IMG/VR virus record: IMGVR_UViG_3300040801_002535
Direction: 5' to 3' (one strand)
Length of the DNA stretch: 59,732 nucleotides
DNA from: a virus
Positions 5,201 through 6,276 of this stretch are shown piece by piece. Position numbers and translations under genes: made by a program. The notes under the pieces are model-generated. The model saw nothing but the letters and a program-made list of their open reading frames with translations, was not told the DNA's origin and ran no database searches. Numbering within the stretch: position 1 is the first letter of the stretch; every line of letters begins with the position of its first letter.

Positions 5201-5569
5201 ATGAGCAAGAAGTTATTCATTGGCCGCTGGAGTCCTTTTCACGCTGGCCACAAGTACATTGTCGACTCGTATGTTGCTAATGGACTTGAAGTTTGCATCG
5301 CCGTTCGGGATACCCCGCTAGATATCAAGAACCCGTACTCAGCCGATTTGCGTAAGCGAATGATCGAAGCGGTTTATGCCGGCAACGATCTTGTGAGCGT
5401 AATTGTGATCCCCGATATCGATACCGTTTGTGTTGGGCGCGGCGTTGGGTATGCCATCATGCAAGTCCCTGAGAACATCGAAAACATTAGCGCCACCGCT
5501 ATTCGTGCCGGTGAGTGTTTTGATTGGCCGGAAGAGGCGCAGGCAGTTCTTCGGGAGGCGGGAAAATGA
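5201..5569 (+). CDS. Minimal cytidylyltransferase-superfamily nucleotidyltransferase (HxGH), substrate unknown
   Basis: 122 aa. Contains GRWSPFHAGH (HxGH motif) and C-terminal ISATAIR (ISxTxxR motif), as in TagD, RfaE-II and archaeal NMNAT enzymes. AGGAG RBS. ATGA overlap with cysC. Confidence 0.7.
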   Translation: MSKKLFIGRWSPFHAGHKYIVDSYVANGLEVCIAVRDTPLDIKNPYSADLRKRMIEAVYAGNDLVSVIVIPDIDTVCVGRGVGYAIMQVPENIENISATAIRAGECFDWPEEAQAVLREAGK

Positions 5570-6276
5570 TCAAACCGCTTTTGTTCAAGGCTCTGGTCTA
5601 CCGGATACTGGCGAGCGGCGTCACCATGACAGCAGCCTATTTTATAACCGGATCCGTTGAGCTCGCTGGCACCATCGTGATTTTTGAATTCGTAGGTAAA
5701 ATAATGTTCTACGCTGGCTTCGATTATGTCTGGCGCTGGGGAAGAATATATCTACGCGGTCCGGGATCGGTAATCTGGCTGACCGGACTTCCCTGTTCTG
5801 GGAAGACGACTATTGCCAAGGCGCTTGGAGCATTGCTATCTGCTTCCGGAAAGCGGGTCGAGATCCTAGATGGTGATGAATTGCGTCATACGCTTTGCTC
5901 CGACCTAGGGTTTAGTGATGAAGACAGGGCCGAGAATCTGAGGCGGGTAAAACACCTCGCAAAGATGAAGGCCAAAGATGGTAGCGTTGTTATCTGCGCG
6001 TTTGTTTCCCCGAGCGGAAAAGAGCGGGAGAGCGTCCGTAACCACATGAGGGAGATTGCCTTCTACGAGGTTTTTGTTAAAGCACCAGCAGCAATCTGCG
6101 CCAAGCGGGATGTTAAAGGGATGTGGGATAAAGCATTCAAAGGTGAAATAAAAGGCTTCACGGGTTATGATGCCCCATATGAAATTCCGCTAAGCCCTGA
6201 AGTGACTTTGGATACCCTTAATTACCCACTGAAGGAATGCGTCCAGAAACTAGCCTCGGTAATCGCGAAGGGATAA
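5566..6276 (+). CDS. cysC: Adenylyl-sulfate (APS) kinase with N-terminal DUF2061-like two-TM domain
   Basis: GLPCSGKTT (P-loop), [28 protein letters not shown] and FTGYDAPYE match CysC almost motif for motif. The N-terminal 60 aa are hydrophobic ([29 protein letters not shown]...). Confidence 0.9.
   Translation: [236 protein letters not shown]

Follow-up and report, generated by a model that had tools for sequence, protein, structure and literature searches.

A phage-encoded pair of a small HxGH nucleotidyltransferase and an APS kinase as a candidate minimal PAPS synthase

Introduction

Why does a siphophage carry two translationally coupled genes for nucleotide-activating enzymes inside its lysis cassette, and what do their products make? 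The two genes occupy positions 5201-6276 of the IMG/VR record IMGVR_UViG_3300040801_002535, a viral DNA of 59,732 nucleotides whose full length is referred to here as the window. The first encodes a 122-aa HxGH-type nucleotidyltransferase (NT) and the second a kinase for adenosine 5′-phosphosulfate (APS), CysC, preceded by a DUF2061 domain. An earlier note on this DNA had proposed that the pair makes an activated donor for the transferases encoded at 47335-48638, with 3′-phospho-APS (PAPS) formed from host APS. The small enzyme was thought to activate a sugar or polyol, conceivably to make APS itself, or alternatively to act in NAD salvage.

We compared the two proteins with family models, structures and gene neighborhoods in viral and cellular genomes. 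On balance, the sequence comparisons incline us to the view that NT and the kinase together constitute a minimal PAPS synthase that feeds a phage sulfotransferase, with NT acting as a compact sulfate adenylyltransferase. There is good support for the kinase step and for the connection with the sulfotransferase, and we infer that sulfate is the acceptor of NT.

The second gene is predicted to encode an orthodox APS kinase

The 236-aa product of the open reading frame (ORF) at 5566-6276 matched PF01583 (APS_kinase) with 190.4 bits against a cut-off of 21.1, and its residues 67-216 aligned to positions 2-152 of the 152-position model. The NCBIfam equivalog model TIGR00455 gave 201.5 bits against a cut-off of 138.7. 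Solved APS kinases (2gks and 2ofw; Aquifex SAT/APS kinase and human PAPSS1 domains) were matched with E values of 1e-41 to 9e-47 at 45-50% identity. The P-loop GLPCSGKTT, LDGD, FVSP (the APS-binding FxSP motif) and the KG..FTG.D.PYE lid were all in register with the Aquifex and human enzymes, and the segments [16 protein letters not shown], FVSP and [23 protein letters not shown] aligned with them column for column. The ORF also contains [28 protein letters not shown]. Residues 7-56 matched DUF2061 (PF09834; positions 2-51 of 52) with 44.8 bits against a cut-off of 23.1, and this part of the protein showed two hydropathy maxima, at residues ~5-20 and ~26-52. With all three cut-offs passed, the earlier assignment of the second gene as a cysC preceded by DUF2061 held, and by every sequence criterion the protein is predicted to be an orthodox, functional CysC with an N-terminal DUF2061 domain.

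The first gene encodes a small nucleotidyltransferase with conserved catalytic motifs

The NT ORF (5201-5569) contains GRWSPFHAGH and ISATAIR, and its stop codon overlaps the ATG of the kinase gene at 5566 (ATGA); the coordinates, motifs and overlap were all found as first described. NT matched the Pfam family CTP_transf_like (PF01467) with 22.6 bits against a cut-off of 21. It has H14-A-G-H17, I96-S-A-T-A-I-R102 and a Rossmann-like fold, the features looked for in the HxGH nucleotidyltransferase superfamily, so that its placement as a 122-aa enzyme of the cytidylyltransferase superfamily was upheld. Its family has the signature GRWxPxHxGH...R...GRxVGY...ISxTxxR. Over 320 distinct domains, the invariant or nearly invariant residues were G8, R9, H14, G16, H17, R36, G79, R80, G83, S97, T99 and R102, which comprise the two ATP-binding motifs and family-specific arginines in 'VR[DN]' and 'GRxVGY'. 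From these residues we predict that NT has retained catalysis, as an adenylyl- or cytidylyl-transferase, and that its acceptor side is small and cationic.

This conservation bears on the idea that NT, instead of catalyzing a reaction, supports the APS kinase, for example stabilizing or regulating it by binding APS, PAPS or 3′-phosphoadenosine 5′-phosphate (PAP). Fungal ATP sulfurylase carries an inactive, regulatory APS-kinase-like domain, and degenerate domains thus exist in known PAPS-synthesis fusions; the structures 1i2d and 1m8p were among the lower-scoring kinase-like matches. However, conservation in the 320 domains is at least 96-100% for HxGH, ISxTxxR and the additional arginines, which indicates selection on NT catalysis and makes a regulatory role the least probable of the explanations we considered.

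The AlphaFold (AF2) model of NT had a predicted local distance difference test score (pLDDT) of 92. Its fold was nearest to archaeal nicotinamide mononucleotide (NMN) adenylyltransferases (NMNATs; Foldseek template-modeling score 0.72-0.78), followed by NadM and phosphopantetheine adenylyltransferase (PPAT), and NadM and archaeal NMNATs were also its best named sequence relatives. NT could accordingly be imagined as a minimal NMNAT for NAD+ salvage or reconstitution during infection, as a counter-defense, with a coincidental pairing with cysC; NadM-Nudix enzymes are common in phages. NT shares GRxxPFHxGH, the NP[FY]...R helix and SxTxxR with the archaeal and NadM enzymes (1f9a, 1ej2, 2qjt), but it has the invariant R36 and GRxVGY in place of their GSAQ motif and acceptor-side elements. 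Its scores with the NMNAT models (TIGR01527, NF002243 and NF0037xx) were 28-39 bits, far below every one of the cut-offs (127-449), and the match was confined to the N-terminal half (residues ~4-70 or ~4-76). In the HMMER alignment, the 18 residues 71-88 of NT replace the 44 residues 77-120 of Methanocaldococcus jannaschii NMNAT, so that ~26 residues of the acceptor-side segment are gone; we take this middle segment to hold the nicotinamide pocket. The Foldseek alignment of NT spanned 158 columns for the 122-aa query. In addition, the genomic partner of NT is an APS kinase (in ~88% of loci, see below) rather than Nudix or Nampt. The missed cut-offs and the shortened middle segment led us to reject NT as an NMNAT of the archaeal or NadM type, and we consider the NAD-related role highly improbable.

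No TagD or RfaE model matched NT in Pfam or NCBIfam, and no NCBIfam model covers the NT part. Existing annotations name members of the family no more specifically than 'adenylyl-sulfate kinase', 'cytidyltransferase' or 'hypothetical', and the JGI label for free NT is 'adenylylsulfate kinase'.

NT is paired or fused with APS kinase in viruses and cells

A survey of IMG/VR found NT on 238 contigs, and 70 distinct loci from the best 80 were analyzed; in GTDB, NT had >586 hits, and 80 distinct loci were analyzed. An APS kinase was encoded within 1.5 kb on the same strand in 62 of the 70 viral loci, on either side of NT and fused to it in 16, and in 70 of the 80 cellular loci, where 55 were fusions. 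NT was therefore adjacent to or fused with APS kinase in ~88% of loci, in line with the earlier suggestion that the two work together. Among the eight viral loci with no kinase nearby, three were at contig ends. A profile search of 1.84 billion representatives returned 566 NT clusters at E<=1e-10. The best 150 representatives (50% identity) comprised 51 APSK::NT and 21 NT::APSK fusions, where APSK denotes APS kinase, 3 NT::DUF2061 fusions and 74 free-standing proteins; fusion to APS kinase, in one order or the other, thus accounted for about half. The same two parts are seen in phrog_10255 ('kinase'; including Xylella phage Salvo gp32), in which the window kinase matches the N-terminus and NT the C-terminus. 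These sequence surveys show a tight association of NT with APS kinase that includes fusions.

To our knowledge, the partners to which APS kinase is otherwise recurrently fused are components of ATP sulfurylase, either Sat (2gks, PAPSS) or CysN. Sat is itself an HxxH nucleotidyltransferase. Sulfate adenylylation would be the most economical reading of NT, and we infer from context that it acts 'like Sat'. APS itself, mentioned in the earlier note as conceivable, is the best supported of the products proposed for NT.

The surveys also bear on an alternative in which the kinase alone serves sulfur, converting host APS to PAPS, and NT activates another glycan acceptor, for example by CDP-glycerol or phospho-sugar/polyol chemistry of the TagD or RfaE-II type, the two genes being adjacent merely through their shared part in modifying a surface. 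NT (122 aa) is close in size to TagD (129 aa), glycan genes are frequent among its neighbors, and many phages have the kinase and a sulfotransferase but lack NT. A role in a common pathway does not, however, account for the fusion with APS kinase, which affects about half of the representatives and takes either order. Moreover, the pairing is found in loci that have no glycan genes, such as those of SAR11. Together with the lack of any TagD or RfaE match, the ~88% pairing gave a sugar or polyol activator no support, and we regard it as unlikely.

DUF2061 was present in 20 of the 70 viral NT loci versus none of the 80 cellular ones. In the viral loci it was fused to the kinase, fused to NT, or encoded by a free ORF of ~60 aa on either side. 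In metagenomic loci, for example, the order was NT, APSK, free DUF2061 (L002) or NT, free DUF2061, APSK (L003), and another locus carried an NT::APSK fusion (L004). In the sample surveyed, DUF2061 thus appears to be a virus-specific accessory of the module; that its hairpin tethers the module to a membrane would be a guess.

Bacterial hosts of NT were Omnitrophota, Planctomycetota, Saccharibacteria and other candidate phyla radiation (CPR) bacteria, Pyrinomonadaceae, Saprospiraceae and Pelagibacteraceae; archaeal hosts were Woese- and Nanoarchaeota and the cultured haloarchaeon Halocatena pleomorpha. In the last, a tractable organism, a sulfotransferase gene is immediately followed by one for a 285-aa APSK::NT fusion, WP_185715462.1 (L093 7734-10345; NZ_RRCH01000002.1), which NCBI names 'adenylyl-sulfate kinase' only.

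Possible sources of APS

Motif scanning of the complete phage genome detected no signature of Sat (QxRNPxHxxH, GRD[HP]AG), CysD, CysN, CysH or CysQ. Across ~245 loci the Sat motif was found in none and a PP-loop motif of the CysD/CysH type in just one; among the viral APS-kinase loci, likewise, none had the Sat motif and one had a CysD/CysH-like motif. PAPS may also be made from host APS in this phage, given that the kinase is present without NT in many of its relatives.

Metagenomic surveys customarily interpret cysC of phages as an auxiliary metabolic gene (AMG), a view to which these scans are relevant. In freshwater phage genomes, 62 cysC genes were treated as part of assimilatory sulfate reduction (PMC10914622). 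The window's gene is likewise a phage-borne APS kinase, but the NT partner, DUF2061 and the linkage to sulfotransferase are unmentioned there. Under the AMG interpretation, cysC, together with NT, would boost host sulfate reduction for virion cysteine and methionine and would be unrelated to sulfotransferases. However, the complete genome had no cysH-like motif, the recurrent neighbors of the module are sulfotransferases rather than reductases, and the module is also found in CPR bacteria, DPANN archaea and SAR11, the last of which is reported to lack the reductive pathway (PMC5069961). We therefore consider this interpretation very unlikely.

CPR bacteria, DPANN archaea and SAR11 are all lineages of minimal metabolism. 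SAR11 is reported to lack cysDNHIJ and sat, with 'cysC' and aprA co-distributed among its strains (PMC5069961). In Pelagibacteraceae (L150-L166), a short APS-kinase-like protein of 135-137 aa is coupled to NT. In one SAR11 single-cell genome (L158 9546-14365), the pair lies upstream of genes for a TENA-like protein, a membrane protein and AprB/AprA. Linkage to aprBA was seen in only 1 of 17 SAR11 loci and falls short of evidence; it hints that the enzyme otherwise absent from SAR11 for interconverting APS and sulfate could be NT.

Sulfotransferases are recurrent neighbors of the module

The transferases at 47335-48638 that the earlier note had named as consumers are real. The window sulfotransferase matched Sulfotransfer_3 (PF13469; model positions 1-215) with 30.8 bits against a cut-off of 27, and the sialyltransferase-like protein encoded before it matched phrog_4603 (E 2.8e-37) and, below the cut-off, Pfam MptE-like (29.1 bits). 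The sulfotransferase has TGCARSGTS, which resembles the 5′-phosphosulfate-binding (5′-PSB) motif, and R130-R131...S139, which are invariant or nearly so in its family. Its AF2 model (pLDDT 94.8) was nearest in fold to Stf1, human TPST1/2 and other PAP-bound sulfotransferases. Sequence searches of the PDB with this protein and the sialyltransferase-like protein gave no usable match, whereas the fold search succeeded for the sulfotransferase.

A Pfam-verified sulfotransferase was encoded within 10 kb in 29 of the 70 viral (41%) and 26 of the 80 cellular (33%) NT loci. These counts, obtained from Pfam-verified seeds at E<=1e-5, are lower bounds because sulfotransferases are diverse and the loci are incomplete. 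A single-query jackhmmer search with the window sulfotransferase found almost nothing in the other loci. An expansion seeded with motifs was discarded because it picked up glycosyltransferases, a VWA protein and an endolysin. Several operons combined a Pfam-verified sulfotransferase (ST) with the module, in the orders ST-NT-APSK (L017), NT-ST-APSK (L010) and, in Halocatena, ST-APSK::NT. Short-APSK::NT fusions had an ST immediately 5′ (L066 and relatives), and in Omnitrophota two STs lay upstream of the pair (L101). In L004, NT::APSK-ST lies among phage head/tail genes, together with genes for NeuB, a NanE-like protein and CMP-sugar synthetase. Unbiased clustering of neighbors (<=3 kb, 181 loci) placed at the top NAD-dependent sugar epimerases/dehydratases, sulfotransferases (several clusters), UDP-glucose dehydrogenases, methyltransferases and GT2 glycosyltransferases.

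The sulfotransferase gene follows the sialyltransferase-like gene, two genes past the capsid gene. The window-type sulfotransferase family was found on at least 535 IMG/VR contigs. Among 82 loci of this family, a capsid homolog was present in 35, the sialyltransferase-like gene in 40, and an APS-kinase ORF directly adjoined the sulfotransferase gene in 18. A 'modification island' of variable content separates the capsid gene from the head-tail connectors. Within it (45733-51266; L247, L248, L249-L328), the sialyltransferase-like gene and the sulfotransferase are conserved, and in related phages the island is extended by methyltransferases, dehydrogenases, a transketolase-like enzyme or a second sulfotransferase. 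Next comes a gene for a ~750-aa protein, which in L247 has a Peptidase_S74 fiber-chaperone domain; it is a possible head fiber and modification target. A 767-aa protein is encoded at 48963-51266 in the window.

With sulfotransferases as recurrent neighbors and the kinase beside orthologs of the window enzyme in 18 of the 82 loci, the product of the module most plausibly serves the sulfotransferase at 47970-48638, as had been proposed. These data also bear on whether NT and the kinase build a PAPS-like 3′-phospho-nucleoside-diphospho-X donor other than PAPS. In the O-methyl-phosphoramidate (MeOPN) pathway of Campylobacter jejuni, the nucleotidyltransferase Cj1416 and the APS-kinase homolog Cj1415 produce 3′-phospho-cytidine diphosphoramidate. 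There, too, a nucleotidyltransferase is followed by a 3′-kinase of the APS-kinase family, yielding a PAPS-like donor for a surface glycan, and a similar donor here would involve identical chemistry, nucleotidylyl transfer and then 3′-phosphorylation. Methyltransferases are also common neighbors of the module. However, the Campylobacter nucleotidyltransferase has a different fold and the pathway uses a cytidine nucleotide, phosphoramidate and glutamine-kinase and hydrolase partners, whereas the loci analyzed here have sulfotransferases. No glutamine-kinase or amidohydrolase partner was noticed in the loci examined, the recurrent partners are Pfam sulfotransferases with PAPS-binding motifs, and the kinase passes the APS-kinase equivalog cut-off with its APS-binding motifs kept. 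We consider a donor other than PAPS quite unlikely.

A proposed sulfate-activation mechanism and the observations that weigh against it

In the PAPS synthase that we propose, the two coupled genes would be expressed together with the late genes and would activate sulfate as a self-contained module. NT, as a compact analog of ATP sulfurylase, would adenylylate sulfate (ATP + sulfate -> APS + PPi) by means of HxGH, ISxTxxR, R36 and R80. The APS-kinase domain would, by homology, phosphorylate the 3′-OH of APS to give PAPS, and coupling or fusion would let the kinase pull the unfavorable adenylylation forward. The gene neighborhoods suggest that PAPS would then be used by the window sulfotransferase, which is encoded in the same late transcription direction. 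The likely target of sulfation is a virion protein or its glycan, because the sulfotransferase and the sialyltransferase-like gene sit directly after the capsid gene.

Several observations weigh against this mechanism. NT could not be placed in the Sat family: it had no match to ATP sulfurylase (PF01747) in Pfam or NCBIfam searches at E<=0.1, it lacks both QxRNPxHxxH and GRD(H/P)AG, and its top 50 Foldseek matches included no ATP sulfurylase, the nearest solved structures being NMNAT and PPAT. Sulfate binding by R36 and R80 is a conjecture. The absence of Sat and CysDN was judged by motif and within the loci, not over whole host or cellular genomes. A few phages encode NT with no kinase nearby, and ~40% of the viral APS-kinase loci closest to that of the window had no NT within 10 kb. 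NT was likewise present in only 2 of the 82 loci of the window-type sulfotransferase. It would therefore be optional, and phages could dispense with it when APS comes from the host. Finally, 16 kb separate the sulfotransferase from the module in this genome, and their link therefore rests on comparative evidence.

A bolder reading, to which we give slightly less than an even chance, is that the ~120-aa NT family represents a third, minimal class of ATP sulfurylase, which together with APS kinase would be the smallest known PAPS synthase. It would provide PAPS without Sat or CysDN in phages, CPR bacteria, DPANN archaea, some haloarchaea and Omnitrophota. Within this reading, NT could run in reverse as the 'missing sat' beside AprBA in SAR11, DUF2061 would be specific to viruses and act as a membrane tether or sulfate-access factor, and the outcome here would be virion sulfation, on the capsid or a head-fiber protein or its sialic-acid-like glycan.

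Comparison with known systems

The PAPS synthases (human PAPSS1/2, Aquifex aeolicus SAT/APSK, bacterial CysN/CysC and CysDN with CysC) share with the phage pair the kinase family, at 45-50% identity, and the coupling or fusion of the kinase to the maker of its substrate, with either domain first. The enzyme proposed for the first step also belongs to the HxxH nucleotidyltransferase superfamily of Sat. The phage partner differs in being an NMNAT-like domain of ~120 aa rather than the larger multi-domain Sat or CysD/CysN, and it has no QxRNPxHxxH, GRDHAG, PUA-like domain or GTPase.

Giant viruses also combine PAPS-synthesis steps with sulfotransferase. Moumouvirus australiensis encodes a SAT/APS kinase (Ma457) and a sulfotransferase (Ma461) in a cluster for capsid-fibril glycosylation (PMC10117803). 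Cotonvirus and Tupanviruses also have the canonical bifunctional SAT/APS kinase, and sulfotransferase is present in Moumouvirus australiensis and Cotonvirus (PMC10117803). Their genes lie within the virion-glycosylation cluster and specify a canonical bifunctional Sat/APSK of ~640 aa, whereas the phage has a 122-aa NT and a DUF2061::APSK, with genes split between the lysis and head modules.

In Casjensviridae (Xylella phages Salvo and Sano and relatives from Stenotrophomonas and Xanthomonas phages), the fused 'kinase' of phrog_10255 combines the same NT family with an APS-kinase-like P-loop domain. Its kinase part, however, is truncated (~130 aa), scores 33-37 bits, below the TIGR00455 cut-off, and has its coding sequence in a region of early genes and genes of nucleotide metabolism. 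The 50 kb of Salvo that were searched yielded no sulfotransferase. The role of this fusion may differ from that of the window module. In Salvo (gp32; L001 15167-15913) and its relatives Sano, Bacata, Suzuki and AhaSv, the 'kinase' gene lies near MazG-like and 'cysteine dioxygenase' genes.

The literature and curated libraries searched (phage cysC/PAPS, DUF2061, sulfotransferase with APS kinase, cytidylyltransferase fusion and capsid sulfation) did not describe the NT partner or DUF2061::CysC. NT as an obligate APS-kinase partner, its probable minimal-ATP-sulfurylase role, the viral DUF2061 accessory and the link to a capsid-adjacent island therefore appear to be undescribed. Phage cysC and giant-virus PAPS synthase with sulfotransferase are already known, and the module is probably a PAPS synthase with a new first module. 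If NT makes APS, it would represent a compact and previously unrecognized enzyme class for sulfate activation. This would explain the use of sulfotransferases in streamlined organisms that lack Sat and CysDN, and phage sulfur AMGs could be re-read as supplying a donor for virion or surface sulfation, not cysteine synthesis. A two-domain PAPS synthase of ~300 aa would also be useful for enzymatic sulfation. The module points to sulfated phage particles, none of which turned up in the literature searched.

Genome organization and the lysis region

The ends of the window share an exact overlap of 117 bp (1-117 and 59616-59732), indicating a complete, circularly assembled siphophage genome of ~59,615 bp. 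The + strand late operon therefore spans the contig junction, running from terminase (39941) through head and tail genes to the tail fiber (1434-4757), endolysin, NT, kinase and spanins (Table 1).

Table 1. Positions of the NT-kinase module, its flanking lysis genes and the capsid-adjacent transferase genes in the window
Feature	Position	Strand	Evidence	Remark
Endolysin	4768..5181	+	phrog_894 E 9e-13	upstream flank of insert
NT, 122-aa HxGH nucleotidyltransferase	5201..5569	+	Pfam CTP_transf_like 22.6 bits	
DUF2061 hydrophobic helical-hairpin domain	5566..5751	+	Pfam DUF2061 44.8 bits	N-terminal part of kinase protein
APS kinase (CysC) domain	5764..6276	+	PF01583 190 bits; TIGR00455 201.5	
Putative holin	6280..6576	+	position and hydropathy only	98 aa; downstream flank
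i-spanin	6578..7021	+	phrog_89 Rz-like spanin E 7.5e-7	
o-spanin	6942..7229	+	Pfam LysC 46.5 bits; phrog_456 E 2e-15	overlaps i-spanin gene
Major capsid protein	45733..46767	+	Pfam DUF6260 84.6 bits; Linocin_M18	
Sialyltransferase-like / MptE-like (DUF115) transferase	47335..48021	+	phrog_4603 'alpha-2,3-sialyltransferase' E 2.8e-37, full length	
PAPS-type sulfotransferase	47970..48638	+	Sulfotransfer_3 30.8 bits	presumed consumer of module product

The earlier description of an interrupted lysis cassette was correct for the endolysin and both spanins, which have family matches. The 'M15' label of the endolysin found weak support, with a match to Pfam Peptidase_M15_3 of 15.2 bits, below the cut-off; the public gene call gives this protein 137 aa and a GTG start. 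The holin was assigned by its position and hydrophobicity. It has two possible starts, at 6280, right after the kinase stop, or at ~6397 (an internal start in the public call, 59 aa), and neither version matched any family in Pfam or PHROGs.

No promoter-like or terminator-like signals of its own were found for the NT-kinase insert, whose GC content (0.51) is slightly higher than that of its flanks. A nucleotide search of 4700-7300 against 50,697 phage records gave zero matches, and a close isolate for comparison is therefore lacking. Elsewhere, the module is placed in early, head or glycan regions. A functional role for its placement in the lysis cassette, with the DUF2061 hairpin beside the holin, was rejected because no other locus shares this position, which we consider incidental.

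Two further features of the genome were noted. The single tRNA gene (33969-34042) was called as tRNA-Tyr with anticodon ATA, and an unmodified A34 is unusual for a Tyr tRNA. In the 1107-aa tail fiber-like protein (1434-4757), residues ~17-135 are a paralog of the 140-aa major tail protein (53448-53870); phrog_158 matches both, and phmmer aligned them with E 5e-33.

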